Made by a program: the position numbers and the translations under genes. This document shows, piece after piece, positions 16,360-60,082 of a stretch of 64,000 bases of DNA (positions are counted from its first letter, which is position 1; every line of letters begins with the position of its first letter). The stretch is from a virus (lineage: Duplodnaviria; Caudoviricetes). The notes under the pieces are model-generated. The model was not told the origin of the DNA. It saw only the letters and a program-made list of their open reading frames with translations, and did no database searches. The DNA lies in the IMG/VR virus record IMGVR_UViG_3300031994_000004; one strand, written 5' to 3'.

Positions 16360-19010
16360 ATGACACTAACAAAATTCAATGAAATTGTAAATGACCTTCG
16401 CAACATCTTGGGTAAGCAGGGCTCTCTCGCTGTTACTCCAGATGGAACAGACGAAATTATTATCCATTTAAATGACGATGAAGATATGTTCGTTTGCCGT
16501 TTTATATTTAAGACTACTCTGCTTATGCGAAATGGAAATGTAGAGTTTATTGTTACATTTATTGAATCTGACTATGAACGGCAGCATTGCGAAGCATCTG
16601 AAAAGAAAATTGCAAAAATGATTGTAAAACAATTTGAACAGGAGAATTAAAAATGACTTCACAATTTTTCTATTTGCCCGCAACACAGAAGGTTGAAGAA
16701 GAAGTGCGAATCAAGTTCACACAGGAACGAATCAAGCTTGTGAAGGATTGGCTCCAGGATAAGGTTGTGAACAAGTTCACTGAAAACGATTTTGATTGCT
16801 GTTCTTATTTGCCTGATTTTGGTGCCCGCCGTAGGGTTGTTAATACCAAAATCGTGACTGACAAGGATTGTAACATTACAAAGCAGTATAAGATTGACAC
16901 AAATTATTTCACTCAGGTAACTGATGAATTTTGTGCGAACAATCGTTGTAAGATTGACAAGATGGATTTCACCTACTTGCTCATGCTCACATTTAGGGAC
17001 AATGGAATTTCTGTTAGTCCTGTGCTTGGAACTCTCGCATTTGAACTGGGGGTATAAATGAAGAAGTGGTGGAAGAATTTTATTGACTCAGACGCAAGCA
17101 CTACTGTGTTTATCGTTTTGGTGTTTGTTGTGACGTTCGCAGTTCTGTATTTCGGTATGAGTTACGGAAACGGAAATACTGAAAATGCGAATGGCGAAAA
17201 GGTCCACTATTCACATCCAATTAAAGACCGCGCTCACGGTGGTTTTGGTTATGGATTTGGCTACAGTCCACGAACTCATCGTTTCGGCTATGGATTTGGA
17301 ACTGGAACAATTAACTTTCATTAAGGAGTATAACAAATGAAACCTGTAACTTCTGCTCTCCATAATTGGATGTCTGCTCTCTTTGTTCATCCGTTATTTC
17401 GTGGCGCTTCTTTCTTTCACTGTCCTGATGGTGTTGGCAGTACTCATTACAATATGTACATTATTGGAATGACCAGTGTTCCTGACCATCGTTTCAAAGG
17501 ACAGAAGAATATTCTCAAGATTGGATGTTACAATACAAATTCAAATCACATTGAAGTACGAGTTGAAATTGAACAACCAGATGCGATTTTCCAAACTGGT
17601 GAAGATAATGTAGAGTATTATACAAATTTGAAGCTCAAGGACATCATTGAGTTTGTGAAAATTTATAAGACGAATTTTGAATCCAGTTGGAAACGTATGA
17701 TGAATCCGTTTGTTATCTATTTCGTAAAACCACAGGAAGAAGTAAAAGATTATATATCACGAAACGAGGCCGATTATCTCAATTACAAAAATATGGTAAA
17801 AACTTGTTTTGATTTTTTGAACAAACGAGAACAGTTGAATATCCGAATGAAGTCAAAGGAGAGTGATTTCTAATGAGTAAGAAGAAACAAATAACTGAAG
17901 ACGAATTCAAATTTGTTATGACAAAGCATAAGGATTTGATTCTGTACTTCACTAGCGAAGAAGAATTAAAATATGAACAAGATACTTATGGTTTTTCAAT
18001 AAACATCTGGAACGATGATTTGTATGGCGATACTTGGGTATCGCTAAAAGATGGTTTTGCGACAGTTCTAGTTTACGATGGTCATTATAACTATTACATA
18101 CCTAAAGAAGGTTTTGAAACTTGGCAAGAATTGGACAGATGGATGTCTGACGGATTTATCAAGGACCATTTGTATGATATGAATTGTGCGAGTAAAGCAC
18201 TTAAGAAACAGTATCTCGGTGATGAAGATTTTAACTATGACCCGTGGAGTAAGAAATAATGTTTAAGATAATTTTCGTTCTAGTAATCAACGCCTATCAC
18301 GGTGGAATGACAACAATAGATTTTACAACTCTTCAACAGTGCGAAACTGCTAGAGAAAAAGTCCAAGCGGCTGCAGCGAGGGGTGCCCGTATTGGTGCAG
18401 TTTGTATTGAAAAGCAAGTTCCACTGAAGAAAACAAAGTGTAAGATAATTAACGATTTCAGTTACAGAAATACAACTTATGAAACTTTAACCGGTTATCC
18501 GTATCCAGTAGCACTTGAATGTGTGGAGGAATAATGAAGAAACTGTTAAACTTTATTATCTTTGTGTACCTCTGTATGCCAATAAGAATAGTATGTTACT
18601 TTGTTTGTGCTTTTCTTGGTTGGCAAGGTTGGAATGAACCATTCTGGGGAAAACTTATTGAATGGTTAAAAGATGAATTTGAAGTTTTGTTACATCCAAT
18701 TAAAACATATAAAAGTATGAAATAAAAGGAATATAAAATGATTAAAGCAAGTGAACTCAGACAAAAGTATTTTGCCGATGACAGTTTCAATGATTCAACA
18801 TTTGAACAGTTAAAAACATTATGCGAAAAGAGTATAATTGCTGCTGCCGAAAAAGGAGAAGATAGTGTAACAATAAACATACCAACAATGTATAAAAAGC
18901 GAATTGCTGGATGGCTGGAAGATAACGAATACACAGTTTTTGGTGTTAATTCCGAATCAGATGAAATGTACATTTTTTGGTCTGAAGATTTAGTTGAGCA
19001 GATGGTTTAA
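16360..19010 (+). CDS. Early hypothetical proteins (16360-16650, 16653-17057, 17058-17324 TM with GFGY repeats, 17337-17873 DF-tail, 17873-18259, 18259-18534, 18534-18725, 18738-19010)
   Basis: Coupled + strand ORFs downstream of the promoter. Confidence 0.7.
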
Positions 19011-19109
19011 TGTAAAATAAAAGTTACAAAACATTTGGAAGATGTAAATTTATATTTACATCTTTTTTCGTTTTTTTCTATTGACAAACTGCATAAATTA
19101 TTCTATATT
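19011..19109 (+). promoter_or_regulatory. Early promoter with two palindromic boxes
   Basis: Boxes 19011-19028 (one mismatch) and 19043-19060; TTGACA 19081; TATATT 19104. Confidence 0.85.
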
Positions 19110-19141
19110 ATTAGTGTAAACAAAACAAGAGGTAACAAACT

Positions 19142-19885: not shown

Positions 19886-20343
19886 ATGCAAATTGTAAAA
19901 ACTTTCGGACAGTCTCTCTATGTACCAAAGACCGGTACTCGCAAGCTTGTCAATAAGACAGTTGTGATTGGTATTTATCCGACCTTGACGAATGACCAGT
20001 TGGTTGCTATCGTTAAGGAATACGAAAAGAACCATGAACCAGGTAATTATTACTTTGTTTATGACGAAACAAAGCGAGATGTTGTTTATCGTCAAGGAGA
20101 CTAATTATGCTTGGTGTCTGGTTGGGTAATACACGATTAGCAAAGGAACATCCTGAAGAGTTTCTAAAGATTGGAATTAAGCTTACTATCTGTATGGGGA
20201 TTTTGTTCACCATTGTTGCCCTGACGCAAGATTTTGCTAGGGATTGTTTGCGTGATTTCATTGAATGGACTTGCTCATTTAATGGAACATTGGATGTTGA
20301 AGCACTTTGGGAACAAATTAAAAACTCTATTGGAATGAAGTAA
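19886..20343 (+). CDS. Two hypothetical proteins (19886-20104; 20107-20343, TM)
   Basis: SD AAGGAG before each. Confidence 0.65.
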
Positions 20344-22717
20344 TGGCTGTATATTTGACACTAAATGAAATAAACGATATAGCGAAACGCTTTAATGGCA
20401 ATTTCATTCAGGGTTGTTGGCATTGTCGCTTTTATATTTTGAATAATAGAAATGAACCTATAACCATAGTGAAATTTAAAAAGCAAGAAAAAGATAAGTA
20501 TAAAATTTGGTTGTTTAATGATGTATTTAATCATTGGAGAACTCCTAATTCTTGGACTGCAATTTTTGAAACCTCAAATTACGGAAAACCAAAAACCAAG
20601 GAAGAATTTTATAACCGATTAGATATGTTATCTAAAAATTTGGTTGAAATTAAAAAGACAGTAAAAGAATGGGCAATTAAACAGAAAGAAATGAAACTTA
20701 ATGAGGATTTCAATGATTAAAACTGCAAATACAGAACAAGAATTTAAAGACATTGTTATGTCAGATTTAAAGTCGCATAACATTCTTACACAAAAGGCAA
20801 TTTTAAAATCTACACTCAATTATTGGTATGGTGATGCCCAATGTTCTAATTCCGGTAATACAGAAATAGTCAATTACAAAGCTTCTATTACCTTTATGGT
20901 TTTTGAAGACGAAACAACTATTAACAAAATAAAAGGAATTGCGAAATACAGACCACTCCATACACAGTTCAAAGCAATTAAAGCATTTTGGTGTGATGAT
21001 AATACGATTGTTTATGGTTATGATTCTTGGTATCATACTTACGAGGAACACAATCCAAGTCCTTACAATGGTTTTCCAAAAGTATGGGGCTGGAGTGATG
21101 ACGATGTTAAAGCAATGCCTGATGTGTGGGCTGACTCTCATCCATCAAGTAAACTTGCTCATTATAAACCTTGGCCTTGTTGTTATTATGGACCGAACTA
21201 TTCAATTACTGGTGACCAGTGGGCTAAAGTTGAATTACACGGCTTAAAATTCTATAAGGACATTGACAATTTGAATAAAATCTATCAGTTTGAAAAGGAC
21301 GAAATTATTAGACTTATTCCTGTTGCGGAAAAGATGAATAAACAGTATGCTCAATTTCTTACAACTGTAGATTGGCATAAAAAGAGTGATAGAAAAATTA
21401 TTCGTCAATACAAACTCAAACTTAATCAACAGAATGTAAATCTTAACAAAGTAAAAATGGATTTCTAAAGGAGATACAATGACAAAGAAATTTTATGTTG
21501 TTAGTTATGAAGAAAACGGTGTAACAAAATACTACACTGATAAGAAAGATACTGATTTATTTGCTTATGAAACTTCCGACATTTTTGAAGCTAAACGATA
21601 TGTGACTTATCGTAAAGCAGAAAACTATGTAAACAATAAGAAGAAAGAAGTCAACACGTGGATGAGAAAAACCATTAAGAATTTTAAGATTCACGAAGTT
21701 GAAGTAACATACAATGTAATTAACACAAATGAAGTATGATAACTGAAGAAGATGTAAAAGATGTAGTCAGTCGTTATCCAAATTTGGAACTGTCAATTAA
21801 CACTAACACACTTTTTAATAACCATACAAAAAGATTGTTAGTTTATGTAAATTCCAAAGCATTCCACTATGGAAGTAATCTTCTTGTTGAATATGATTAC
21901 AATGGAAAACCTAAAGATGGGATTTTGCAGGTAAACAATGGGAACCAGCACATTTATAGTGATTGGGCTTATATCACTGAAGATTCTATTTATCTGGTTG
22001 AAAATGAAAAAATGAGAAAGAAGGTCCGAACTAAAGAACAATTTGAGAAACTGATTGTTGATTCTTTAAGAATGATTAAAGAAGCCGAAGTTGACCTGCA
22101 CCTCCGTAAGATTAGTAAGGATTTCTATGACTAGAAAACAAGTAAAAAATCTTTGTGCCGAATTTGGTATGGAAATGGTTGCTTTTCCTAGGCGTATATA
22201 TTATTGTGATTATCTTGTTGGTAGTTTCTATCCCGATAAAGGAAACTGTTCATATAAAATGAGTTTTATTGGTTCTTGTGTGAAAACAGATAATTATGAA
22301 ACAGCTCGGGAAGAAGTAATTAAAAAGATAAAAGACATTAAAGAATTTATAAATCAACAAATGTTAGAAAAGATTAAAGAGGATTTCTAAATGACATTTA
22401 CAGAATATAAACAATTATGCCTAAAATATAATTTGCAGGTATTGAGTTACGAAGGACGAGATTTTGGAATTTGTGGTGTTCCGTTTGTGGGTTGGGGTAA
22501 TCATATTAGAGTTATTCCAGAACGAGTTTGGAAGGACGAATTGTTATCTGACAACGGAAAGCATATCATTTATACAGGAGAATTCCAATATACTCCTGAT
22601 TTAATAAGTAAGAAAGACCAAAAAGCACTTGAAAATTATTTGATAAAATTAAATGCTTGGTTAAAACAAATTAAAGCCGAACAGAAAATCAGATTTATAA
22701 ATGAGGATTTCACATAA
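20343..22717 (+). CDS. DF-tail array 1: 20343-20720, 20713-21468, 21736-22134, 22127-22390, 22391-22717 (plus non-member 21479-21739)
   Basis: C-termini KLNEDFND, KVKMDF, KISKDFYD, KIKEDF, FINEDFT. Confidence 0.8.
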
Positions 22718-23086: not shown

Positions 23087-23180
23087 GTACTGTGCGTTTC
23101 CTGCCATTCTCTCGGTAAAATGATATAGCCCTAGCATCGGTATCAAATCTGGGCTCCTTGCTACGTTTCCTGGGCAGTAT
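23087..23180. other. GC-elevated structured intergenic element (candidate ncRNA)
   Basis: Terminal pairing GTACTG/CAGTAT; inner stem AGCCC/GGGCT; duplicated CGTTTCCTG and TCGGTA. Confidence 0.3.
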
Positions 23181-23182
23181 TA

Positions 23183-23248
23183 TGTAAATAATTATTTACA
23201 TTAAAATGACAAATTCTTATTGACAATAGAACTGTAATTTACTATATT
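23183..23248 (+). promoter_or_regulatory. Early promoter with perfect palindromic box
   Basis: TGTAAATAATTATTTACA 23183-23200; TTGACA 23220; TATATT 23243. Confidence 0.85.
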
Positions 23249-23276
23249 ATAATAAAACAATAAGAGAGGTAACAAT

Positions 23277-26200
23277 ATGGCAAATGTAAAAATTCAGGTC
23301 CCAATGTTTAAGGGAATTAACATTTTTGACCAGGAAGTAGTTGGTCAGTTACTCGTTGTGGGTGATACTGCTTGTATCATTCCGTTAAATGGCGAACACG
23401 GCGATTGGAACAAGAACTTTATGACCTTTGATGGTCATCATTTGATTCAGGGAATGTATGACGAAGCTCTTTGGATTCGGGACCCGTCCACCATTCAACC
23501 CGCTGGTCATGTAGAAGTGGAGGTATGCTAATATGGATATAATTTCTCCTGAAATTTTTAATTCCTTGTGTAAAATCTGTAAGGAACATGGCTGGTATAT
23601 GCCCGAAGAAAATTTCCGAACTGTTTATAAAAACATTGAAGAAAGCAGAACTGGTGGTGTTGATTTTGCGAATAAAATTGTATGCGAATGCCATGCGAAT
23701 TACAGGTTTTTTAACCCGGATGGTTCAGACCAAGTACGAATGACTACTACTTGTGAAAACTATTTTACAACCATCCGTCTTACTAAACTTTTTATCGCAT
23801 TTCCTGTGATTATGCACACCATTGACTTTGGCGAATTATATCATTTTCAAACTGACGATTTTTATTTGGATTTTAAAGACATTAAATCCGAGCATGACAT
23901 TGAAGATGTGTTAATGCAGGTGGAAGAACACATCAAAGAAGTAAATGATTGTATCGGCACCAAAGGAAAAATGAATAAGAAACTCAGGAATTTGCAAGGA
24001 GATTTCTAATGGAACTCAAGAAATTTAATGATACGATTGAACATCTGCGTCAGTTCTTTGATGCTTGTGTTTTTGAACTTCGCACAAAGAATATGGAAAC
24101 AGAAACCATCTTGACAGTTAAGGACGAAAAGTCCAATGCTGATTTAGTTGAAATTCATTTTACAAATGACATAAACATTAACTCCCATAATGGTTATGAT
24201 TCTTTGGGCTTGTTCGTTTCTTATGACTGGTCTAGTTATGACGAAAACGATTTGAGCCAGGCCGAACTTTCTGCGGTGAAGGCAATTATCAAAATGTTCA
24301 GGAATAAGTAAATGCGACGTGAAGAAAAAATTGAACTTATCCTAAAAATTCTTGGGAATAATGGATGGAAAATTTCGCAGGAAGATAGGGACAAACTTTA
24401 CAACCGTAAAGGAAAGATTTACTCACAACTGAACGGACATTATGACCTTGGTAAGAAAAATCTTTGTAAAGAAAAAGATTATATCGGGTTTGAAGGTGAT
24501 GATTCAGTTATTGACCTTGTAGGTGACGAATGGCAAGTTGTAGCAACTCTATATGCCAGCGGAAGTGGTTATCTTATTATTCCAATTCTTTATCACATTT
24601 TAACAGAACCAAACAAAATAAATTTTGGTTGTACTGATTATTATGTGGATTTGATGTACTACAATACTGAAGAAGAAATTGCTGATGTTATTGCTCAGTG
24701 TGAAGAAAAGATTAACCAGGTAAAATTCAAGATCAAAGAATACGAAGCAAAAATTAGAGAACAGAAAATACAAAAGGATTTTTAATGCTAAAGAATGAAA
24801 AAGTAAAACTTCTGTTAAAATATGCTGAACAATATGGTTTTAATGTTTCTAAATCTCATATTCTTACAAAGAATGGGAATGTTCAGCGAGATGCTACCTG
24901 GAGAGATTATATAATAGGAATTACGGAAGTTAAAAAAGCAGACGGAATTTATGAACGAGGCACGCACGATGTATTTGATGTAACTGCTATGGGTGATTTG
25001 TTTTTTACGATTACGGCTGGTTCATTGATTCATTTTCCTGTACCACTTCTTATTCAAAATTTTGATAAACCAAAATACTATGTTTATCGTGAAGTTGCGG
25101 ACTGGAATGATTTTAAAACTGAAGCCGACATTGAAAAATATGTTAAACTTTCAGCTGATGCGATTGAAGCCCTTAAACTAAATGCTAAACAGTATGATTT
25201 GAAAAAAAGAGAACAGAAGATGGAGAAGGATTTTTAATGCGAGAATGGATGCCAAAAAAAGAATACAATTTATATCAGAAGAAGATTAGTGAACTCTGTT
25301 TGCAGATGGGTTTGAAAGAAATACGAACTAAAGATGCCGTTGAGTATCGGACTGAACTAGAAACCAATTTTGTATTCGGCGAAGTAATTAGAATGTTTGA
25401 CTATGACGAACACTATTACAGCGCAGTTGTCTTTTTCAATAAGTTGGTGCCTTCAACTACTGTGTTTGGTTCAGATGATTACAATTACCTTTTTGAAAAT
25501 TACTACAAAGAACTTCCGTTTGAAACTGATGACAACACAATTTCATTTAGTGAGCCACTTGAAAAGGTTTTAGACAAAGTAAAATACATTGTTAGTAATG
25601 CTATTAAGCAGCGTAAAGAGTTGGATGTTAAAGTAAAATTGGAAAAAATGAAGGTAGATTTTAAATGAATTATTTGGATAACGATTTTGTGAATGATATA
25701 GTTAAGCGAGTTTATGGCTGGCATGATTGTTATGATAAAGCGGAAGGAACAGAACGAAAAGGATTGTTTGCCGCAGTTAGTACTTTTATGCCATATTGCC
25801 GAAATACAGGCATTTATACTGAAAAAGATTTATCACGATTGTGTGGGGAAAATGAAATTTTATTGTTATATCCTGGATTTTCTTGGACTGAAGAAACTAT
25901 CCGACAGCACACAGTAAAATTCCTTAAAGAAGTACAAATTAAGGCCAAAGAAAATTTTTTGAAAGAGGACTTCAATGATTAGTAAAAATTTATTTCACGA
26001 AATTTGTAGGCGAAATGGATTGGTTCAATGCGGACCAATGAATGAATACAAGTTTCCTGCTTGGAATAATAAATTTGGTGGTAGGATTGTTGCGACCTGG
26101 TTTAAAACAGAACGGGTTACAGTTTATGTACTTAACCAGCATGAACGAAATGGAATAAAGCAGTGGGTTCAGGACCCGTATTACCAAATTGAAGACCCTG

Positions 26201-27387
26201 AAGAATGTGAAACACGAATAAAAGATACTTATATAACGGCAAAGAAACTCTGTCAGGAATTTAAAATGAAATCTATCAGTAGGGATTTTGACTAATGCTG
26301 AATGAATACTATTATATGACTGAGAATGTTGTTATGGGATATGGTAAGAACTGTATCATTTTATTGCACGGTTGTAATGGTAATGATGACACAATTTGTC
26401 ATTGTTCACAAATTAGAAAATACAATGCTTATCCGAATATGACAATGTATAATTTGTTCAAAGACCAGATGGATTTGAATGGTGGACTTTATTCAAAATC
26501 CAGGAGAAACGAACCTTTTTATCTGGTTGGCGGTATTATAGATTTGGATAAGTTTAGTATTGTTCCAATTAACGATGGTGCGAAATTAGAACCTGATACT
26601 CATTATGTTGTAACAACTGGGAATGACAAATTTAAAGTAGTTTTGTCAAATGAAGATGGCACACTCAGTTGTACTGGTGTTAAAGCATATCTTCCAATTT
26701 TGACTAGAGATATAGCAAGTAAGATTTTTGCTAAATTCAGTAAAATGGAACGCAAACTAGAAAAAATGAAAAAGGATTTTGAATGATAATAGGCGATTTT
26801 GTAACACTAGAAGGTTTCCAGGAAGAAATGCTGAATTGGCTGGAAGATGTTAAGGAAAGATGTGTTCCAAATGGTAGCTGGTGGGATAGACAGAAAAATA
26901 AACCTGAAATTGCTGGGTTCTACTTTAAAATGTTTTATGACCCTGGAGTTCACGATTGGTTGCTTTCCGATGCTGGAGTTTATTCTGCAAACCAGCGTTA
27001 TTGTTCTCGTAAGAAAACAAACCATACATTCCTAATTAAAGGAATAGATTGGACTGAAGAAACAATGAAACAAGAAATGGCTCGTCAGTATAAAGAATTC
27101 CAAGTTAAATCAAAATTAGTTAAATTGGAAGGAGACTTTGAATAATGTTTAAGATTATTGTTTACGCAGATGGAATGGAATGTACCAGATTTGAAGGTGA
27201 TAACTTGTATGACCTTGTTCTTAAATTGAACATTTACAAAGAAAAGCACTGTGCATTTACACACGCATTTATGTTGTTCCAAAATGATAAACAACCTACT
27301 GATGAAGTATGGAGAGAATACCACGATATGTTGTACAAACTAATTCCACTTGCTAGAAAGATGGTTGCGATGGGAGAAGATTTTTAA
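23277..27387 (+). CDS. DF-tail array 2: 23533-24009, 24312-24785, 24785-25237, 25237-25668, 25665-25982, 25975-26295, 26295-26786, 26783-27145, 27145-27387 (plus non-members 23277-23531, 24009-24311)
   Basis: C-termini NLQGDF, KIQKDF, KMEKDF, KMKVDFK, FLKEDFND, SISRDFD, KMKKDFE, KLEGDFE, AMGEDF. Confidence 0.8.
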
Positions 27388-45465: not shown

Positions 45466-45801
45466 ATGACTTGTTATGTAGAAGTTTGGGAATCCAAAGA
45501 AGATTACGAATACGCCCGAAATTACAATGGAAACGGTGAAAATCCGAAGGAACCAAAGTTTGTGTTTGCGTATGACAATTTCAAGTGGATGGAAAAGTAC
45601 ATTTCTAACCACCCGAAATTTTGGGAAATTTGGGAATTGTTCCAGATGGCAGCTGATGGTTGCCGAGTGGTTGAAAATGAAAGATGGAAGGGACCGCATC
45701 CTGACCACGATAATTTGAAATTTATGGAAAAGGATTTTTGGAAGCTCACAGAAATTCCGATTGGCAGTAATTACATCGGTGTGTGCTACATTAACAAGTA
45801 G
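45466..45801 (+). CDS. Hypothetical early protein
   Basis: SD GAGGT; first gene after the promoter. Confidence 0.7.
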   Translation: MTCYVEVWESKEDYEYARNYNGNGENPKEPKFVFAYDNFKWMEKYISNHPKFWEIWELFQMAADGCRVVENERWKGPHPDHDNLKFMEKDFWKLTEIPIGSNYIGVCYINK

Positions 45802-49149: not shown

Positions 49150-49152
49150 TTT

Positions 49153-49218
49153 TGTAAACATTATTTTACACATTTTTACCATAAATCCATTGACAGAAAC
49201 AGTGGATTTTTCTATATT
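49153..49218 (+). promoter_or_regulatory. Early promoter with palindromic box and terminator hairpin
   Basis: Box 49153-49170; TTGACA 49190; TATATT 49213; hairpin 49183-49209. Confidence 0.85.
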
Positions 49219-49245
49219 TTACTTGTAAAGAAAAAGAGGTTAAAT

Positions 49246-50364
49246 ATGAGCAATAAAACACGAATTTCCGAACTTGAAAAAGAAATTAAGAAGAACCAGG
49301 AACTCTATTACAACAATAAGCCGGTCATTTCCGATATGGAATTTGATGCCCTGGTTGATGAACTTTCCAAGCTTGATCCGGAAAATCCGCTGCTCACAAC
49401 TGTGGTTGGTTCTGACCACACAGAAGGTTTCAAGAAAGTTACCCACAACATTGTTATGGGTTCTCAGTCAAAAGCAAATACTGAACCGGAAATGAACGCC
49501 TGGATCCGCACTATTGACCCGTCTATGGTGCTTGGCTCCTTCAAGATGGATGGAAATTCTGTTTGCTTGACTTACAAGAATGGTAAATTGGTGCGAGCTG
49601 CGTCCCGTGGTGATGGTTACACTGGGGATGACATTACAGAAAATGTGAAGAAGATGAATTTCGTCCCGCAGAAGTTGGTGGATGATTTTACTGGTGATGT
49701 TCGTGGTGAAGTGTTGCTCTCTCGCAAAAATAAGAAGAAGTATTTCCCTGAATTTAAGAACTGCCGTAATGGTGCTAGTGGTGTTATGAAGCACCTGGAT
49801 GGTGCTGGTTGTGAACATTTGGATGTTGTTTGCTATGATGCTCAATACTATTCCAAAACTGAAGAATTTGGTACTCAGCAGAATCTCGTTTCTTTCCTTG
49901 AACGCAACGGCTTTAAGGCTGCGGAATACCGCTTTTTCAAGAATCTTACTGGTAAGGCCGCTATGGACTACCTTAAAGAAGTCTTTGACGATTTTGATAA
50001 TCTTGAATATGACATTGACGGTATCGTTTGGAAGCAGAACTCCATTGACATGAACGATATGCGAACAAACGAACGTCCGAAGACCAACATCGCCCTCAAG
50101 CCGGCTAAGGTTTTCAAAGAAACGATTTTGGAAAACATTGAATGGCAGGTCCGAAATGGAACACTCACTCCTGTTGCTGTATTGCGTCCAGTAGAACTTC
50201 AGGGAGCAACGATTAGCCGAGCATCTCTCTGTAACATCGCTTGTTTGGAACAGATGGGAATTGAAATCGGACACAAGGTAATGATTTGCCGCTGTGGTAT
50301 GATTATTCCGAAGATTATCAAGGACATTAACACTGGCAAATATGCCGAAGGTTACGAACTTTAA
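49246..50364 (+). CDS. ligA: NAD-dependent DNA ligase, N-terminal part (Ia + adenylation + OB domains)
   Basis: YYNNKPVISDMEFD, KMDG, SRGDG, VRGEV, RNGASG, DIDGIVWK, IALK, LTPVA, RASLCN, IIPKII. Confidence 0.9.
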   Translation: MSNKTRISELEKEIKKNQELYYNNKPVISDMEFDALVDELSKLDPENPLLTTVVGSDHTEGFKKVTHNIVMGSQSKANTEPEMNAWIRTIDPSMVLGSFKMDGNSVCLTYKNGKLVRAASRGDGYTGDDITENVKKMNFVPQKLVDDFTGDVRGEVLLSRKNKKKYFPEFKNCRNGASGVMKHLDGAGCEHLDVVCYDAQYYSKTEEFGTQQNLVSFLERNGFKAAEYRFFKNLTGKAAMDYLKEVFDDFDNLEYDIDGIVWKQNSIDMNDMRTNERPKTNIALKPAKVFKETILENIEWQVRNGTLTPVAVLRPVELQGATISRASLCNIACLEQMGIEIGHKVMICRCGMIIPKIIKDINTGKYAEGYEL

Positions 50365-50379: not shown

Positions 50380-51094
50380 ATGAATTGGTCAGATTGGCTT
50401 GACGATGTGTGGGTGGAATTTGTAAAATGCGAAGGTGGTGCAGTTACTATGGCCGACAAACCGATTTATTTTCCACCAAATGTTTACACAAATCCACAGG
50501 ATGATGATTTAGTAGGTCATCTATACGATTGGTATAATGCTGGTATGAGTTCAAAACTAGCTGCTGAACAGATGGGTTATATTGAGACTTAATTATGGGT
50601 ATTTTTAAACAACTATACAAAACATTTGTGTCTGACCCACAGAAAAAGCAGGAACTGTTAGATTGGTTAGTGGAACACGATACGCCTGAGTATCATAAGA
50701 ATCCGCTACCAGTTGGTTACGAAGCTAACAGATTGTTGTATGAAGAAATGGAATCTGTGGAAAGTTTGGAACAACAGAAGCAACAGATGCTGAATTATTA
50801 CACACGAAATAAACCTTTGGATTTGAACAAGAAGGAAGATAAGGACATTTATTTGCAAAGACGCTTGGAAAAAATCCAGGAGGATTTCTAATGTTTGTTG
50901 TTACATTTGCTGCTAAACCTGCAAAAGATTTTCCAACATTAGATGCTGCTGCCCAATTTATGACTACAGTTAGTTATGGATTTATACGCTGCACAGATCC
51001 AAATGGAGATGACTGCTCTATTGCCTTGTGCCAACTTATTGTAAAGAAACTTAAAAATAATAACAGATTAAATGATTTAAAAGAGGACTTCTAA
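50380..51094 (+). CDS. Hypothetical 50380-50592 and DF-tail proteins 50595-50891, 50891-51094
   Basis: DF members end KIQEDF and DLKEDF. Confidence 0.75.
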
Positions 51095-51615
51095 TGAAAG
51101 CAATTTACGCCGGTTCATTTAACCCACTTCACGCTGGACACATTGACATTCTTAAAAGGGCAATCAAGCTCTTTGGTGATGTTACTTTGGTATTAGCAGT
51201 TAACCCAGGAAAGACTTATATTTCGGCAGAAAGGCGTAAAGAAACTTACGAATGGCTTTTCAAAGAAATCGGACTGAATGTAAAGATTGAAATTCTCTCG
51301 GCATATAAGTTGCTCGCAGATTACTGCGATGAAAATGGTGTAACTCACATTGTTAAAGGTCTAAGGAACGGAACTGACCTTGATAGTGAAATGGCACAGG
51401 AATGGTACACGAAGGGACTTAACCCAAATGTAGAAACTGTGTATTTCACCACAAATAACACACATCGTTTTCTGTCTTCGTCCAGCATCAAGGCCTTTGC
51501 CAAAATGGATAAAGAAGGTTTCATTAACTATATGAAGAAAGTAAACAGTATTGAAGGAGCAAAAGCCACAGTTGTTGAAACATATCTTGACTGGGTGTGG
51601 AGGAATGTGCAGTGA
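51094..51615 (+). CDS. coaD: Phosphopantetheine adenylyltransferase-like nucleotidyltransferase
   Basis: YAGSFNPLHAGH (HxGH), AVNPGK, IVKGLRNGTD, ETVYF, LSSS. Confidence 0.75.
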   Translation: MKAIYAGSFNPLHAGHIDILKRAIKLFGDVTLVLAVNPGKTYISAERRKETYEWLFKEIGLNVKIEILSAYKLLADYCDENGVTHIVKGLRNGTDLDSEMAQEWYTKGLNPNVETVYFTTNNTHRFLSSSSIKAFAKMDKEGFINYMKKVNSIEGAKATVVETYLDWVWRNVQ

Positions 51616-53551
51616 ATTTAACTGATAATGTAAAAAACATAAGAGCTGATTTTGACAAAGCTCGTAAGAATATGGACTATATGGAAAAAGGACTTCAGTT
51701 CGTGGAATCATATTTTACGGACAAGAATTTTCCTGGATGGTGTTGGAGAATTTACACCCGTGGAACATTCCAAAATAGACCTTATTTTGAAATTCAAGGA
51801 AATTCTCACATTCCAAGTATGAACTGTTCACAGTACGCAACTATTTGTTTGAAATATAACTGTTGTAATAAAACTGGTGCAGTTCTAGTCATTCAAGACC
51901 TTGCTCCTGAAATGAATGCTTGGAGTTTGGACTGGGCAGATAAACAAGCATACTGTAATGAAATGGATCCGATTTTTAAATCATTTGAAGGAATGAAGTT
52001 CAAAAATCCTGATCCGTTCATTCCGCAAATTGCGAAAATTCTTACTGACATTAAGAAAAAAGAAGATGTCAATAATGGAGCACTTCAACTTAAATCACTA
52101 ATCAAACAAATTCAACTTAAAAAGGACTTCTAAATGGCACACGAAAAAATTTTTAAAACTGTGGAAGAAGCCCAGGCGTTTATTCAACCCTGGATTGACA
52201 AGGTTTCAGCTGATTTGGGCTGTGGTGTAGAACCATACAGTTACAATGATGGCTATTATATGTCTGGTGGGCAAAATGTTGGTGACTGGTTTTATGGTGC
52301 GAATTTAAAGTATCTCGGATATAATTTGGGGACTATAATGATGCAGTACCAGTATGGTTATGATAGGGACACTAAAGAATCGTGGAAATATGACCCGTAT
52401 GTTCAGTTATCATTACAAACAAAAGTAACATTTACAATGAAATCTACATTTACTAAGTCAAATATGCGACACGATATAAACATTAAACTGAATGTTAGCC
52501 GACAGATGTCTACATCAGATAAAGATTACAAGAAGTTCATTGACTGGGCAAAGCTCATTATGAAACAACTAAAGACTGCGGAAGCTAAAAAGCGAAAGTT
52601 CCAGGCCGATGTTGACTTTGAATAAGGAGCAACTATGACAAATAAAGAGAAAAAAGAAAAGGTAGAACAAATTAACGAAAAGTTCCGTTCTCTTTTGGAA
52701 CAGTATGCGGATCAACTTAGGAATACTGGACTTATTGTAGATTGGTTCCCTGATGAAGATTACCCAGATTGTTCTTCATTTTCTTGCTGTCTATCTAAAA
52801 ACGATTTGGACGAAGGCGATGAGTTTATCAGTGTTTGTTTAACTGCTCCTGAAATGGATTGGGAACATCCTGAACTATACGATCTGGATAAATACACACC
52901 AATAATTTATTTCAATCTTGAAAGTAAAATTAGTGAAATCAAAGATACTTCAATTACCAAAACTGGTATTAAAATCAAAACAAAGTATAAATTTAGCAAC
53001 AGTAAAGAATACAAAGAAAAGGATTTTAAAACTGTACTTGAATGGGCGAAATATATTGTACAGAAAGTAAAGGACCTTAAGCAACAAGAAAAGATTAACA
53101 AAATGCAGGCGGATTTCTAATGGCATCTGTTTTCAAAACAAAAGTAGCAATGCTTGACATTATCAAAAAGTTTGCCGAAGAACTTAGTCAAATTGGCTTT
53201 GTTGATGTGCATCGTTTAAATAACGATGAAGGTCGGCATACTTTCTACATTGATAATGAATTTGTTGGTGACATCTACTTTCATTATCAGAAAGAAAACA
53301 GAAGTATGCGTCGCATTGTTACAAGGTTTAATTACGAAGTTAAAATCTATCATAACATCACTTACAACGCAGATAAGGTTGAAGAAGAATATGACATTAA
53401 ACTGCGTGATATTGTATCACGATATGTAACTGAAGATACCATTGACATTTTGTATGACATTAAAAATATGCTAAAAGATGTTTACAGGAACTATAAGAAA
53501 GCTCAAAATAAAATAAAAGAATTGAAAATGAGCGGTGATTTTTCCGAATAG
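51612..53551 (+). CDS. DF-tail array 5: 51612-52133, 52134-52625, 52635-53120, 53120-53551
   Basis: C-termini QLKKDF, QADVDFE, KMQADF, KMSGDFSE. Confidence 0.8.
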
Positions 53552-53554
53552 AGG

Positions 53555-53583
53555 TTGACAAAATTATAGATTTTTACTATATT
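53555..53583 (+). promoter_or_regulatory. Sigma70-type promoter without the upstream box
   Basis: TTGACA-17-TATATT. Confidence 0.7.
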
Positions 53584-53593
53584 GTTGACCGCT

Positions 53594-54175
53594 ATGAAAA
53601 AGATAATTCTATTAACAATTCTATTATTCTCGCTCGGGTTTTCTAGTAGAACTGAGAGCAATTTCGCCGACCTTTATTACATTTCTAAGGGTTCGGAAAT
53701 CATCAAATCTGTAAACAAGAACATTACAGAAAAAGAAGCATTTCAGATTAGTACTGTTGCGTATGAAGAATCTGAAAAATACGATATAGATTTTCATTTT
53801 ACATTGGGGATAATGACAACTGAAAGTCGCTTCAATGTAAATGCGAAATCTTATTGTGGTGCAGTCGGTCTGATGCAACTAATGCCGAAAACTGCCAAAT
53901 ATATCGCAGAGAAATACGATATAGATTATAAGAACTTGTATGATATAGAATCAAACATTCAGATTGGTGTTGCGTATCTGTATCATTTGAAAAACAAGTT
54001 TGGCAGTTACGAATTAACAGCAGCTGGTTACAATGGTGGAAGTGGCGGTGCTAAAAAGTATCACGAATATATGATTGGAAAACGCAAAGCAGACGAAATC
54101 CATAATCAAACTTTAAATTACGTTCCGAAAGTAATGGGATATGTTTATGACTACCGAAAACTCACAAAAATCTAA
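53594..54175 (+). CDS. Lytic transglycosylase (SLT domain) with N-terminal signal
   Basis: TESRFN, GAVGLMQLMPKTA, NIQIGVAYL, AGYNGG; MKKIILLTILLF signal. Confidence 0.9.
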   Translation: MKKIILLTILLFSLGFSSRTESNFADLYYISKGSEIIKSVNKNITEKEAFQISTVAYEESEKYDIDFHFTLGIMTTESRFNVNAKSYCGAVGLMQLMPKTAKYIAEKYDIDYKNLYDIESNIQIGVAYLYHLKNKFGSYELTAAGYNGGSGGAKKYHEYMIGKRKADEIHNQTLNYVPKVMGYVYDYRKLTKI

Positions 54176-54419
54176 AAAATATGTTGTTACAAAACTTTTT
54201 CCACCGGATTTTAATGCGGATCCATATTCTAAATGGAAAGAAAAACAACTGTGCCGGTGCGATACATTAAAAGAATGTGCTGAGTTTATCGTGAACAATG
54301 ATGAATACTGGTATAATTGCCGATATGGTAAACAGGACCTGAAACAAGAACTTTGTGATTTGATTATAAAGCTTAAAAATCTACGAAAACGCAGTAATTC
54401 ATTGGAATCCGATTTTTAG
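54147..54419 (+). CDS. DF-tail protein
   Basis: Ends NSLESDF. Confidence 0.65.
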   Translation: MTTENSQKSKKYVVTKLFPPDFNADPYSKWKEKQLCRCDTLKECAEFIVNNDEYWYNCRYGKQDLKQELCDLIIKLKNLRKRSNSLESDF

Positions 54420-54483
54420 TAAACAAAATTTTACATATTTATCCACAAAAACCATTGACAAGGTCGGTGGTTTTTTCTATATT
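54418..54483 (+). promoter_or_regulatory. Early promoter with palindromic box and terminator hairpin
   Basis: Box 54418-54435; TTGACA 54455; TATATT 54478; hairpin 54447-54475. Confidence 0.85.
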
Positions 54484-54513
54484 AAACTTAAACAATTAAC
54501 AAAGAGGTACAAA

Positions 54514-55856
54514 ATGTCAACTTTCCTGTTCGTTATGCTAATTCTAGAGGCAATTTTCACTGTGTATGCGATTGTTGCTGCTATGTTATCTGATGAAAAG
54601 GACGCTGCTACTAAATTCGTTGGTAGCATTATCCGACTGGTGTTGGTAATCGTGGCCTGCGTATTTGGTGGAGCTTGGGCAACTGTTATTGGCATCATTT
54701 ATGGTGCTGTTGGTAATGGACTTGGTTTTCTGTATAATGCAGCAAAGAAGAACGAAATCAAAACTATGGTTTGTTTGGTGTTTATGATTTTATTCATTGT
54801 GGCACTCGCAAACAACTAATAACAAATTAACAAAGAGAGGTAAAATATGTCACAGTATTCACACGATGAACAGATGGAATTTCTTTATGAATTTGCGAAG
54901 AACTATCAGCACTATGTTCCTGACGCAAAGGACAATATGAGGGCTAGTGATTGTTTGAAGAAGCCCAACACTCTCCGAGCTGCTCAGGCTCAGTTGAAGT
55001 TGATTCGTGACCGTTCCAAGTTCTATCGCAGGCTGAAGGCATTTCTCCAGCACGGCATTAAGATTTACTCATTTGAAGGAACTCAGTGGGAAGAATTGGA
55101 AAGTGACGAATTGCGTCAGTGGCTCAAGTTGGCGGTAGATGTCTATGCGGGTTCTAATGCTCAGTCTGTTAAGGACCAAGAAATCACGAAGCTCGCCGGT
55201 GCGATTACGATGTAAATTTAAGGAAACAAATGCTCAATCTAAAAGAATACATTGACGGCATTAGGCCGTTATTGAATGTCCCGTTTGACTATACACCAAA
55301 CTGCTATTATGGCGGTTCTTACGATATGAGAGTTAGGTTCCAGATACAAATGGCTCAACTACCTAAATCGTTTGACTTCGCACGTACTGTTATCCACCCG
55401 GACAGTTTTCTTTTTGATTGTTCGTTCACATTAACCGAACATGAAACGGACCCTAGCCACGTTTCCTGTCAAATACTGTATTGGTTTTTGCGTGATTATC
55501 TGATTGGTACTCAGTATCAGTTCCTAGATTTAATGGAACGAATGGAAGAAAACAAATTTTTACCAGATAATCAAAAGAAATTCCTGGATAGAAATATGTT
55601 TATCCAACAGAAGTCCGAAGTTTTCCCATTGACTGAGATTGTAACTAAATTTAAACAATATCTGGAGATTTTGAGAAAGCAGTATTACGGAATTTTACAT
55701 ATTGCTGAAGACCCAATTTATAAGCAGTATTACAAAGAAATTACGGCTTTGGAAAATAAAATTGACGAAATCAACAAACAGAAACGAGAACTGATAGATA
55801 AAATGAGTAAACAAATCCAAAAGGACATTAAAATCTATAAAGAATTTGAGATGTAA
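54514..55856 (+). CDS. Multi-TM small membrane protein 54514-54819; hypotheticals 54847-55215 and 55230-55856 (coiled-coil tail ending KEFEM)
   Basis: SD sequences; hydrophobicity pattern. Confidence 0.7.
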
Positions 55857-55917
55857 AATTCTTTTTACAATTATTTCCTAAATCGTCATTGACAATGTGA
55901 CGATTTTTTGCTATATT
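55852..55917 (+). promoter_or_regulatory. Early promoter with palindromic box and terminator hairpin
   Basis: Box 55852-55869; TTGACA 55889; TATATT 55912; hairpin 55880-55906. Confidence 0.85.
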
Positions 55918-55947
55918 TAACTTGTAAATTAAAAATGAGGTATCTTT

Positions 55948-56787
55948 ATGAACGCAATTAAAACTCTCGCCAAACTTCATAATTGGAATGTTCCGACTGT
56001 TTGCCCGATTTGTGGTAGTGAATTGGAACTGTCCGAAAATCATTGTCAGCTCAAATGTGTAAATGATTTCTGTCAGAGCAAGACTGCCGGTCGCATTAAC
56101 AAATGGACTGGGATTTTGGATGTGAAGGAATTTGGTTTGAGAACGATTAACCTGCTCATTGACAACGGTATTGTTGATTCAATTTCGTCCCTCTACAAAA
56201 TGGACCTGAACAAGATTGCGAAAATTGAAGGAATGGGTAAGCGCTCAGCAGAGAAAATGAAGAAGGAATTGGATGCCCATAAGGAAATGACATTGGCGAA
56301 GTTTATCGCTGGTTACAACATTGAAGGTGTTGGTGAGAAGTTCATTGAGAACATTATCAGTTCCAAGAAGTTCAAGAATTTTAATGATTTCTTCGCTTAT
56401 TCTAAATCTCCGACCCGCTTTACTTGCGACGGTGTGGGTGATGTGATTAGCACGAAGTTGGCGGAAGGTTTGAAGGCCCTGAAGAGTGATATGGAAAAGA
56501 CACTCCAGTTCGTAACGATTAAGAACGCAGCTCCGAAGAAGGTGGTTGCTGGTGGTTCGTTGGGAGGTAAATCTTTCTGTTTCACCGGTGCTGCTAGTAT
56601 GCCGCGAAAGAAGCTCTGGGAACTGGTTGAAAAGAATGGTGGTGTGGTTCACGAAGGCATCAAGAAGGACACTGACTTCTTGGTTCTCGCAGATGTGAAT
56701 AGCACATCGGGTAAGGCCAAAGCGGCTCGTAAGCAGGGCATTACTCTCCTGAGCGAAGCAGATTTTATCAAAATGTGCGTAGTGTAA
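55948..56787 (+). CDS. ligA: NAD-dependent DNA ligase, C-terminal part (Zn finger + HhH + BRCT)
   Basis: PTVCPICGS...CVNDFC Zn finger; HhH motifs IEGMGKRSA, IEGVG, DGVG; BRCT FCFTG...NGG...KKDTDFLV...K..A...GI. Confidence 0.9.
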   Translation: MNAIKTLAKLHNWNVPTVCPICGSELELSENHCQLKCVNDFCQSKTAGRINKWTGILDVKEFGLRTINLLIDNGIVDSISSLYKMDLNKIAKIEGMGKRSAEKMKKELDAHKEMTLAKFIAGYNIEGVGEKFIENIISSKKFKNFNDFFAYSKSPTRFTCDGVGDVISTKLAEGLKALKSDMEKTLQFVTIKNAAPKKVVAGGSLGGKSFCFTGAASMPRKKLWELVEKNGGVVHEGIKKDTDFLVLADVNSTSGKAKAARKQGITLLSEADFIKMCVV

Positions 56788-59700
56788 ATGGTTGATTTTG
56801 CTTTTTTCACTAGCCAGGCGGAAATATTAAATCTAAATTGTTTGCTTACTGGTGATTGCTATTACATTGGAACAGCTAAACCTGAAACAGAATTGATGCG
56901 ATATAATCTTTATGACAAATCTGTAACAGTATGGCCGAGAGTGTATTATAGTGACCTAATGAAAGAAATTAGAACTGAACATGAGAGTGTTGAAGTTAAT
57001 ACGAATGAAGGACTTGAAGAACTATGTGGTATAATTCAGATGAATTTAAAGAACGTCAAAATGAAACGTCGTTTGTCTAAAATGAATGAGGATTTTTAAT
57101 GTTTAAGAAAACAGAAATTGTAAATTTTCAACTGGAAGATGCAGTTCCTGAAACTTCATATCTTCATTCCAAATACTGGACGAAGTATGGTGGGAATTAT
57201 CGTTTGCAGTTGACTGCTCACAATTTTTTAGAAGCGTGTTTTAAAACTCAGACAGAATTTGAAATTGAACAACCAGGTTTTTGTGACCTGTGCGATGAAA
57301 AAGATACAATTTGGGTTAATTTCTACCAATATGTTGAAATAAACGGGTATGAATTTAAAATTCCTGCACCAGTGCTGGATTGGGGAATTCGTCCAAGTCC
57401 ATCTGGTTTAATTACCGAGAATTATTTTAATGTGTTCAATGTAGATAAGCCAAAAAAAGAACGAATTTATGAATATGTTGATTACTATAAGAAGCACAAA
57501 AATCCGCTTCCGTATGGAACTGATTATCACGATTACTGCACAAAAGAAGTACGAACAAACCAAATTTGGATTGAAGATTTAAGTGATTTTGATAAAATAA
57601 TTGAAGTAGTTCGCCCGTATGCCAAACAACAGAAAGAAGAACTTTTCAAATATGCTTCTATGTTTAATGTATTGGAAGAAACACAATATACAGAAAAGAT
57701 GGAAGCATACAAAAAGCAAATCGCAGATTTGAACAAAATGAGAAATGATTTTACTGATAAGACAGTAGATTCCATTTTAAAACAAATTAACTTACAAGGA
57801 GATTTTTAATATGTTTACGCCGGAACAAGTAGCACAAGTACAGAAAGCAAACGAATTTATCAAATCTAATCTACCACAGGTAAAGACAGTTCATCCGACC
57901 TTTGAAAAGAAGCGTTTAGTTTGTCTAATCAAAATGAAGGATTTGGATTGTGAAGTTGCTGAACGAGTGAAAAAAGAAATCCATAAAGACCGGACATTTC
58001 TTTATGTAAAATTCTTGAAGGACTTCAGCATTGAATGTTCTTACAACAAGATTGATTTTGCGAAACTACCAAAGTCAGAACCTTGTGGCAGTTATTTTGT
58101 GACTGACAGTATGTTAAATGTAACTGAAATTGAAGATGAAGAAACTGATGTGGCTACTCTGAAGAAGGGTTTCAACGCAGTTATTCAGCAACTTAATGCT
58201 ATTGACCAGATCATCAATTCTCCTGATTTGGTTCATTTTAAAACTGAAATTGACAATACCTATGAAGAAGAACGCAAACTCAAAGCACAGCTCAAAGCTC
58301 TTGACGAAAAGAGAACACTTCTTTATAGAAAGAAAAAGGATTGTTACAAGAAAATTATCAGTATGGCAGAGGATTTTTAATGACTTTTGATTCTCTAAAA
58401 CAGGAATGTGATGAGATAAATGTTACCTTTAATGGTAAACTTCTATTCTATCACAAGGAAATTGTTGGAAGATACTATCACAATGATGACAATGAACTTG
58501 TATGTGATGTTATTTCTATTGGTTCACCATACCCAGCTGAAGGACTTAACAATGAAAACGAAATAATGAATTGTCTTGTTAAAGCCATAAAGTATTTTAA
58601 GAAACTAGAAAATGAAAAAAGATTAAGAAGGATAGAAAATGATTTTTAAGGTGTTTGAGAAATTTGGGATTGACCTACAACAGCATTGTTCAGGTGACTT
58701 TGGTGATTTTAAAACATACGATTTAAATCTGGGTGATTTTGATTCACTGAAATATGCTGAAAACATAGACTGGGGCTGTATGAAAGTTATTTACAATAAA
58801 GGTACATATTCCATTATGGGGTATCTGCCGACCATTAACTTTAATGGCATAAAGACAATGCTCATAACTTACACGAATACAAATGTGCTTCGCTACGGCC
58901 AAAATGTTAGGACAGTTAAAATCATTGAAGATAAACAAATTACTGAAAAGAATTTTGACCGCGTTGTTGCCAATGTTAAACATTTCCTGGATAAGTTTGA
59001 CGAACAAGAAATAAAAATTCAACAGTTCTTAGGTACATTAAATCTGGACGATTTTAGGGAGACAGTTGTAACATTGACAAATGAAATAAAAGAAAAAATG
59101 ACTGCGCTTGATGAATACAAAGAAAAATTTTACAAGAATGTTAAATCACAACTTTCTGTAACGAAGGATTTTGAATGACGAGTGAACAAGAACCATCAAT
59201 GTTACCAGAATACAAGAAAGTATTAGATGCATTTGGTTTGAAACACGTTGGTGATGGATGTTATAGCTGGAATGGGCACTGGCTAGTGTCTTACTATGGT
59301 GATAAAGATTTCAGTATGTGGGCAGTTATGCAGGGTATTAGAAAGGAATGGATTAAAAATGACCCGTTTATTTCATTGGGTGGTTGTGAATGTATGAGTC
59401 CTGAAGAACTGGAAGAACGAATTAGTGGCATAATAAAAAAGTACAACCAAGTTAAAGAAGAAATTAAACTGGAAAATTTACAGAAGGATTTCAAATGAGA
59501 AAGGACATTAAAGCCTTTTTAGAACAAAATAACTTTGTTTACGAAAACAGAGATTTCACTGAATATGTTCCAGGGAATTCATACTACAACTCACTAGGTT
59601 GCTGGGTTTCGGAATACCATCAGATATTTTACAGACAGTATAAGTATTTCCAAGTTATGTTGTTTGTGGCACCGCATTTTGATAAGCGTTTTCCACCACA

Positions 59701-60082
59701 CAAAAAACGAGGTTATATTTTCACTCCATATCTGACTAAACAAGAGCAGATTGATTCTTACATTTATACAGACTGCGTATATTTCAAAATGCGAAACATT
59801 GAAATAGATTATGGAAAACAAGCAAATCAAACTGATGAGTATGCTACTCCATTGAGATGTTTAACTGAAAAAATGAACACTTATCAGGGTATCAGGAAAA
59901 TGCGAAAACTGCATAAAAAACTTTGCCCAACAAAATTTAAGGGCAACTGGAAAAATATGAGTATTCCGCAATTAAAGAAAATGATTACAGAATTTGAAAC
60001 TTACGATTTGGCATTAGAAAAAGCCATAAAAGAAAGAAAAATGTTTAAGAAAGTTAACAAAATCAGTGAAGACTTCGTGTAA
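56788..60082 (+). CDS. DF-tail array 6, seven consecutive members: 56788-57099, 57099-57809, 57811-58380, 58380-58649, 58639-59178, 59175-59498, 59495-60082
   Basis: C-termini KMNEDF, NLQGDF, SMAEDF, RIENDF, SVTKDFE, NLQKDFK, KISEDFV. Confidence 0.85.

Follow-up and report, generated by a model that had tools for sequence, protein, structure and literature searches.

A conserved C-terminal Asp-Phe helix in a probable expanded family of small early proteins from an uncultured ruminant-gut jumbo phage

Why do dozens of small phage proteins that otherwise look little alike end in nearly the same way? The question is raised by a 64,000-nucleotide stretch of viral DNA (hereafter the window) that corresponds to the minus strand of positions 113,654-177,653 in a single 210,185-bp virus contig, a fragment denoted G000 with a CheckV completeness of 56%. 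A first-pass annotation of the window had pointed to 48 open reading frames (ORFs) whose products finish with a helical stretch, a hydrophobic residue, two arbitrary residues, Asp and Phe (here called the DF tail). The DF tail is under purifying selection at the amino acid level, and we hold with moderate confidence that it is the conserved C-terminal module of a lineage-specific, expanded, and fast-diverging early family, in which it provides a constant handle for a common partner.

When plus-strand ORFs in the window were searched with the regular expression [ILMVA]xxDF plus 0-3 residues, the count of 48 was reproduced and 47 of the matches proved to be real genes; the other, ORF 58196-58390 (+), was rejected as an alternative-frame chance match inside 57811-58380/58341-58649. 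A greedy call of 405 ORFs over all of G000 gave 122 matches to the regular expression, 112-113 to a hidden Markov model (HMM) of the tail, and 106 to both; scanned over the relatives as well, as the first-pass annotation had proposed, the HMM recovered 12-28 matches in each related IMG/VR contig. About 4 matches would be expected by chance (DF dipeptide frequency of 0.0065 per position), and only 2 of ~400 non-genic ORFs on the opposite strand, compared with the 122 of 405 called ORFs, matched the regular expression. A 636-residue tRNA nucleotidyltransferase ending in ..STFPEDFQ was excluded from the family as another chance match. Taken together, these counts put the tail on ~105-125 of the ~405 ORFs in G000. 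The members are small proteins with a median length of ~120 residues.

Anchoring 125 tails on the Asp (position 0) revealed a motif longer than had been described, K(-14)-x6-[KR]-[LIM]-x-K-[ILM]-x-x-D-F, which ends a helix of ~30 residues. Lys occupies position -14 in 111 tails, Lys or Arg position -7 in 116, Leu, Ile, or Met position -6 in 91, Lys position -4 in 55, and Ile, Leu, or Met position -3 in 107; the earlier observation that the upstream hydrophobic position and helix are conserved therefore holds and can be carried back to -14. Weaker signals upstream, Thr or Asp at -30 and Glu at -28, resemble a helix N-cap (T/D-x-E), and hydrophobic positions recur at -29, -26, -22, -19, -15, and -12. 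Phe is the last residue in 71 of the 125 proteins, and the rest carry 1-3 more residues (E, K, ND, V, Q, etc.) that are exactly those arising from ATGA or AATGA overlaps with the next start.

Such overlaps raise the possibility that the signal is purely one of nucleotides, in which case GAGGATTTCTAATG would supply the following gene with its Shine-Dalgarno (SD) sequence and start, or act as a recombination joint, and the amino acid motif would be a by-product. Indeed, an overlap of 1-12 nt with the following start exists in 71 of 112 plus-strand tail genes, and a G-ending codon (or GGA) precedes Asp in 76 of 98 coupled genes versus 6 of 24 uncoupled genes (Fisher p = 2.6e-6), with GAG reaching 67% at this codon against 9% in the background, AAG 82% against 28%, and GGA 92% against 29%. 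The conserved residues, however, extend 42 nt upstream with free wobble. Positions -14, -7, -6, -3, 0, and +1 carry 1.7-4.2 bits at the amino acid level, with wobble positions near background, which is the comparison that the first-pass annotation had called for. At the conserved K, R, L, I, D, and F, codons are chosen just as they are throughout the bodies of those genes; Leu(-6) is encoded by all six of its codons, and the mixed usage noted earlier is borne out for both Asp (GAT/GAC, 96/26) and Phe (TTT/TTC, 69/53). The motif is absent from 101 equally tightly coupled non-tail genes, whose C-termini are unrelated to it despite embedded SD-like strings, whereas it is kept whole in 24 tail genes lacking an ATG within 12 nt of the stop, many of which have a terminator, the following early promoter, or an AGGAG of its own for the downstream gene behind them. 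It also persists in all five last-in-operon genes named in the first-pass annotation (ending at 22717, 45368, 49149, 54419, and 60082), and a separate SD does follow the genes ending at 21468 and 52625, with AAGGAG before the next ATG at the 52625 junction. In the relative G002 and in a more distant 417-kb relative, the proteins nearly always end in DF plus 1-4 residues even though the pre-Asp codon is often not SD-like. These results refute the nucleotide-level reading as a sole explanation, leaving it next to no probability: SD/start overlap, which the first-pass annotation had weighed as a trivial explanation, fails as the cause of the tail and is real at a single place, the pre-Asp codon, which alone carries an overlaid SD and does so only if a downstream start is present. 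A recombination joint, suggested in the same annotation, was not supported either, because wobble positions are as free as elsewhere in the genes and there is no nucleotide conservation beyond the needs of the amino acids and the SD overlay.

Selection on the protein is also apparent among orthologues. Reciprocal-best-hit orthologues of tail genes are 23-55% identical (one pair, 88%) versus ~60% for all shared genes, and they retain the tail, in agreement with the earlier claim of a tail shared at the protein level. It is kept in 21 of 23 orthologue pairs between G000 and its relative G001, and one exception still has DF with a longer extension. Over 20 pairs, identity was 33% in the bodies and 33% at non-motif tail positions, and the six motif positions were 74% class-conserved. 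Within the family of 42085-42552, 21 homologues down to 36% identity keep K-L-x-x-[MLIF]-x-x-D-F. DF-tail genes evolve fast, yet their motif positions are kept.

How widely is the tail distributed? The source is an uncultured ruminant-gut T4-like jumbo phage. G000 has a GC content of ~33% with nearly all genes on one strand, and it encodes a family-B DNA polymerase (Pfam E = 4e-26) that is 27-31% identical to the polymerases of T4-like cyanophages and pelagiphage HTVC008M, along with a helicase, an NAD-dependent ligase, NAPRTase, and radical-SAM enzymes. Near-identical DNA occurs mainly in sheep and goat gut metagenomes, and parts of the window are present in five metatranscriptome runs. Relatives were retrieved by a NAPRTase-anchored search and with a degenerate DNA pattern for the DF tail, yielding IMG/VR contigs of 49-133 kb; the comparison set consisted of five IMG/VR contigs and 20 kb of syntenic sequence read from the 417-kb ENA scaffold WILK20-1_SAMEA7016608 scaffold_20. 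Tail ORFs make up 18-36% of ORFs in the IMG/VR relatives by the regular expression and 14 of 31 (45%) in the ENA stretch, whereas T4 and HTVC008M gave 0 matches to the tail profile. The DF-tail family appears to be lineage-specific, and in a clade of uncultured ruminant-gut T4-like jumbo phages it accounts for ~30% of ORFs. Neither 7 kb of core genes nor the arrays found a DNA match in the INPHARED phage collection, and a related-locus search queried with a 1271-residue protein was likewise empty. Searches of 5.8 and 1.8 billion proteins with the tail profile returned only 3 and 6 significant matches, the full-length ones all C-terminal, but a 30-bit motif cannot reach significance at that scale, and these searches say little on breadth. 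The tail profile gave only chance-level internal matches to PDB sequences, an ESM Atlas look-up returned unnamed viral clusters only, and full-text literature searches found no description of the DF tail.

Are the bodies that carry the tail related to one another? Matches of the 125 proteins to known families were few (two in Pfam, four PHROGs families with one member each, and two weak ones in PADLOC), the strongest of them being the chance-match tRNA nucleotidyltransferase, and by these profile searches the bodies are mostly ORFans. With the tail removed, BLAST sorted the 125 proteins into 113 clusters, among them tandem paralogues. The first-pass description of the N-terminal regions as mostly unrelated is accordingly right in that most lack mutual sequence similarity, but it was overstated. 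In the largest cluster, the 40 members have in common an N-terminal helix, MTxEEFxxLxxKYGL, and its profile matched 46 proteins, 42 of them with a DF tail; by eye, many further members start with a similar helix-Gly-hydrophobic element, for which a loose regular expression was only moderately enriched. At least a third of the tail proteins share an N-terminal helix. When the 30 largest clusters were compared profile to profile with hhalign, 15 pairs scored at E < 0.01 versus ~4 expected, and 35 of the 80 cluster pairs at E < 0.1 aligned N-terminus to N-terminus.

AlphaFold models of two proteins from different clusters predict the same plan, in which strands separate an N-terminal helix from a long C-terminal one. 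In the 155-residue product of 42085-42552 the helices span residues 5-18 and 121-154 with strands between (mean predicted local distance difference test score, pLDDT, of 63.5), and in the 85-residue product of 42898-43155 they span 3-12 and 55-84 (mean pLDDT 77.4). The best structural matches to the 155-residue model were Nqo15 (Z 8.4, root-mean-square deviation 3.0, 94 aligned residues), CyaY (Z 7.3, 3.4, 85 aligned), and TriTu (Z 6.9, 2.7, 81 aligned), scores of 8.4-6.9 lying in the range that the structure-comparison tool calls common and the query model having a mean pLDDT of 63. Matches to the 85-residue model reached Z <= 5.3 only, and Foldseek with an AlphaFold model returned nothing at E <= 0.001. 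The 155-residue model may resemble the sandwiches of frataxin/CyaY, YjbR, and the TriTu immunity protein, in which both terminal helices pack against the same face of an antiparallel sheet; it has no sequence similarity to them, and they lack the long DF helix that is predicted to project.

The shared N-terminal helix, the excess of N-to-N profile alignments, and the common model plan make one greatly expanded family more likely, although not proven, than a tag grafted onto unrelated domains. Tandem paralogues point the same way, as do the rank effect within operons described below and two groups of unusual members. A 288-residue protein just past the window end (L006, window-relative 72906-73772) is a tandem fusion of two family units, with an internal tail ..KEKKAADDFD.. 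and a C-terminal variant ..KWEKYDI. Fourteen very short members (58-126 residues) are clustered on the strand opposite to the one that bears the window genes, at L007:15704-19215 (+), equivalent to G000 191.7-195.2 kb, and several of them have little beyond the Lys/Glu-rich helix and DF.

The geometry of the tail suggests what it may do. Across 290 non-redundant tails, opposite-charge couplings peak at i+3/i+4, the spacing expected of a helix; the charge couplings lend no support (z <= 1.6) to antiparallel self-pairing of distal tails (D0/K-14, K-4/E-10). On a helical wheel, K-14, K-11, K/R-7, K-4, and D0 form one stripe adjoining a ridge of L-6, I-3, and F+1, and the opposite face varies freely, even among orthologues. 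The a/d hydrophobic stripe farther upstream (-29 to -12) does not continue in phase into the terminal -6/-3/+1 ridge. This register shift, a C-terminal helix about twice as long as the N-terminal one, and the best structural matches to the 155-residue model, which stop at residues 134-147 (8-21 before the C-terminus), together suggest that the distal 15 residues project. Each protein would then be a small helix/beta-sheet/helix sandwich in which the C-terminal helix lies with its proximal half against the variable body of the same protein, whereas the distal 15 residues, which bear a Leu-Ile-Phe ridge with a Lys ridge alongside and an Asp cap, reach past that body. The projecting part would be a constant handle binding one common partner, of phage or host origin, and targets would differ between paralogues according to their variable bodies. 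That >100 divergent proteins keep surface Lys, Asp, and Phe nearly invariant is most simply explained by a common partner.

The main rival to this docking handle is a purely structural helix, that is, the most conserved element of hyper-divergent paralogues, which stabilizes its own fold and has no common partner. The shared N-terminal helix, the same predicted helix-sheet-helix plan, the tandem arrays, and the fusion protein that keeps an internal DF all fit this alternative, but the C-terminal helix has 30-34 residues versus 10-14 in the N-terminal helix and short strands to pack on, the structural matches end before it does, and near-absolute invariance of Lys(-14) and Asp-Phe across dissimilar bodies is unusual for a constraint of fold only. 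We consider the structural alternative possible but somewhat unlikely. Several observations weigh against the docking handle or against a single family. The 85-residue model is confident to its last residue (pLDDT 93), which fits a purely structural helix equally; the internal DF of the 288-residue fusion indicates that the motif can survive away from the C-terminus; and iterated profiles still divide 315 proteins from seven contigs into 206 clusters, so a single common origin is unproven. The tail consensus is unchanged between related phages, leaving no co-variation with a hub candidate to exploit. The ClpP, AAA_2, and gp45-slide_C Pfam models had no match in the 56%-complete G000, and DNA_PPF had none in G000 or in four relatives that are 18-35% complete, results that are not evidence of absence. 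Array heads have no conserved leader gene that might be a hub candidate, their first genes being mutually unrelated.

When in infection would the family act? TTGACA-N16-18-TATAAT-like sites number 40 on the gene strand and 0 on the other, with 3-4 in a reversed-sequence control, and each promoter cassette combines a GTAAACA..TTTTACA inverted box, a short hairpin, and the SD GAGGT. Tail genes constitute 46% of genes in promoter-led operons versus 23% elsewhere (p = 6e-6). As read from their sequences the promoters are host-type (sigma70/sigmaA-like), so the family would be early. Position within the operon also matters: the first gene behind the promoter has a tail in 1 of 28 operons, and from rank 5 onward the share is ~80-100% (e.g., window 41553-45368 and 55948-60082). 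This rank effect fits arrays growing by internal duplication, and the arrays probably expand through tandem duplications within them, the copies then diverging rapidly. The layout given in the first-pass annotation, including two runs of nine consecutive members, was reproduced. Its first ORF, 17337-17873, belongs to the family only as a degenerate member, found by the tail HMM and not by the regular expression. The family members and promoter cassettes in the window are as follows.

13046-13390, + strand: variant member ending in ..ENKLEEDF followed by an 8-residue acidic extension (EEDDNDM), outside the range of the first-pass annotation
17337-17873, + strand: degenerate member ..IRMKSKESDF without a hydrophobic residue at -3 (tail HMM only, E = 0.006)
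20343-22717, + strand: array A, 5 DF-tail genes (20343-20720, 20701-21468, 21736-22134, 22091-22390, 22391-22717)
20701-21468, + strand: array A gene, start probably the ATG near 20712, inside AATGAT
22091-22390, + strand: array A gene, start probably 22127
22391-22717, + strand: final gene of array A, followed by a terminator hairpin
23533-27387, + strand: array B, 9 DF-tail genes (23533-24009 plus eight in a row)
24312-27387, + strand: the eight-gene row of array B (24312-24785, 24785-25237, 25237-25668, 25665-25982, 25975-26295, 26295-26786, 26783-27145, 27145-27387)
23277-23531 (the operon's first gene) and 24009-24311, + strand: non-tail genes interspersed in array B
28634-29029, + strand: lone DF-tail gene, 131 residues, ..KLESIKEDF
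42085-45368, + strand: array C, nine consecutive DF-tail genes (42085-42552, 42552-42905, 42898-43155, 43155-43559, 43559-43876, 43876-44253, 44253-44588, 44588-44920, 44910-45368)
44910-45368, + strand: last gene of the array C operon, N-terminal hydrophobic segment
45807-49149, + strand: array D, nine consecutive DF-tail genes (45807-46187, 46175-46534, 46528-46893, 46893-47174, 47174-47494, 47491-47979, 47979-48350, 48350-48832, 48829-49149)
47491-47979 and 48350-48832, + strand: array D genes with N-terminal hydrophobic segments
48829-49149, + strand: last gene of the array D operon
50595-54419, + strand: array E, 7 DF-tail genes (50595-50891, 50891-51094, 51597-52133, 52134-52625, 52635-53120, 53120-53551, 54141-54419)
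51094-51615 and 53582-54175, + strand: cytidylyltransferase-like gene and SLT transglycosylase gene interspersed in array E
56788-60082, + strand: array F, 7 DF-tail genes (56788-57099, 57099-57809, 57811-58380, 58341-58649, 58639-59178, 59175-59498, 59495-60082), behind the ligase C-terminal-half gene 55948-56787
41496-41552, + strand: early promoter cassette before array C, TTGACA-N17-TATATT and SD GAGGT with a preceding GTAAACA..TTTTACA box
23220, 45409, 49190, 54455, 55889, and 60105: beginnings of equivalent cassettes
23140-23285, 41435-41560, 45360-45470, 49140-49250, 54410-54520, 55850-55950, and 60075-60165: cassette stretches

Two neighboring features of these early operons were recorded. 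Two genes separated by 5.6 kb (window 49246-50364 and 55948-56787) encode a split NAD-dependent DNA ligase, one with the Ia, adenylation, and OB domains and the other with the Zn-finger, HhH, and BRCT domains, and each half is the first gene behind an early promoter. The SLT lytic transglycosylase (53582-54175) has an N-terminal hydrophobic segment and lies within an early operon among tail genes.

Expression as one early cohort would suit a C-terminal degron or timer, in which a host or phage protease/unfoldase clears the early proteins together, a special case of docking. Degrons at the C-terminus, ssrA-type ones among them, establish the principle. Only early-operon proteins carry the tail, every member has it at the C-terminus or close by, and marking a cohort with one tag is consistent with co-regulated turnover; however, a ClpP/ClpX-type gene was not found in G000 at its 56% completeness, and a structured helix of 30 residues is unusual as a degron. 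Moreover, 1-4 extra and often charged residues follow Phe in 52 of 122 G000 members and are the rule in G002 (21 of 21) and the 417-kb relative (13 of 14), unlike degrons that require a free C-terminus. A degron read from the free carboxyl end (ssrA-like or PDZ/Tsp-like) was rejected on the ground that the members extending past Phe lack the extreme C-terminal position, and the degron reading as a whole appears quite improbable.

The first-pass annotation had named the sliding clamp as a possible hub. T4-family clamps bind the C-termini of gp43, gp33, and gp55 (PMC2988020). The C-terminal [ILM]-x-x-D-F loosely resembles a PIP box (h-x-x-a-a), and the T4 tails are likewise short C-terminal elements on differing phage proteins with one reader and an end of acidic residue plus Phe. 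The G000 phage is itself T4-like and has tails of the T4 type on its polymerase and a DNA methylase. Those tails argue against the suggestion: the two proteins carry different, acidic-hydrophobic PIP-like ends (..SGLDDFFV and ..SGLNDFFE), whereas the DF tail, which the polymerase lacks, forms a basic, uninterrupted helix of ~30 residues in which Lys(-14) and Lys/Arg(-7) are invariant, Asp replaces the first aromatic residue, and there is no second one. The T4 system also involves 3-5 proteins, with acidic-hydrophobic peptides (that of gp55 apparently on a flexible linker), versus ~120 here, and ~120 abundant early competitors would be hard to reconcile with replication. We therefore regard a T4-type gp45 docking motif as very improbable. 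Three assignments were rejected in the process. The polymerase does not share the motif, its ..SGLDDFFV end being without K-x6-[KR]-L-x-K-I; the DF tail is not of the gp45 clamp-binding type, being Lys/Arg-rich and within a continuous helix of 30-34 residues; and it does not fit the PIP box Q-x-x-[ILM]-x-x-[FY]-[FY], since with [ILM](-3) at position 4, position 1 is L/I/M(-6) and position 7 is Asp.

The PIP/T4-like tails of the clamp-binding type occur on the polymerase (L002:16731-19490, -) and the N6/N4 DNA methylase (L002:16049-16747, -), and two small ORFs in all have such ends, among them a 130-residue ORF ending in ..LSILDFLN (L002:10344-10736, -). A clamp-tethered methylase, if true, would be unusual for a phage.

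A last alternative invokes membrane targeting by an amphipathic helix, like that of MinD or FtsA. The Lys ridge does adjoin a Leu/Ile/Phe ridge at the extreme C-terminus, and five tail proteins also have a hydrophobic N-terminal segment; such segments were seen in all three genes (44910, 47491, and 48350) to which the first-pass annotation had ascribed transmembrane-type stretches. The hydrophobic face of the tail helix, however, comprises three residues only, an invariant Asp stands beside the Phe, and the remaining helix is Glu/Lys-rich. Invariance of specific residues points to protein recognition over lipid binding, and we think a membrane helix scarcely probable.

The handle with a common partner also admits a bolder form, namely that the phage maintains an adaptor library in which >100 hypervariable heads grip host or defence proteins and one helical handle delivers all of them to a single machine. 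Candidate machines would be a protease/unfoldase, the replisome, or the transcription apparatus, and the heads would turn over rapidly between related phages, as an arms race demands. We offer this as an unlikely proposal. Comparable arrangements exist elsewhere: poxvirus ankyrin-repeat proteins carry a C-terminal PRANC/F-box-like domain, SspB carries a C-terminal ClpX-binding peptide, and both the handles and their partners have been shown experimentally. Each couples a variable target-binding body to a constant C-terminal handle onto one machine, and the poxvirus proteins also form a multigene family in a large virus; neither has a sequence or fold relationship to the DF-tail family. An adaptor library of this kind would be the bacterial-virus counterpart of the poxvirus ankyrin-PRANC or cullin substrate-receptor families.

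The DF tail offers an example of dual coding in which an SD is written into the wobble of a single codon, only where it is needed. Read conservatively, the family is an extreme lineage-specific expansion, comprising ~30% of genes and 206 clusters among 315 members from seven contigs, and such an expansion is a natural experiment in small binding proteins diversifying on a fixed scaffold and a source of new binders and inhibitors. If the docking handle is real, a single handle linking about one-third of the phage proteome to one partner would be the largest modular protein-targeting system in a bacterial virus, and the identity of that partner would give a mode of action to >100 ORFans at once.

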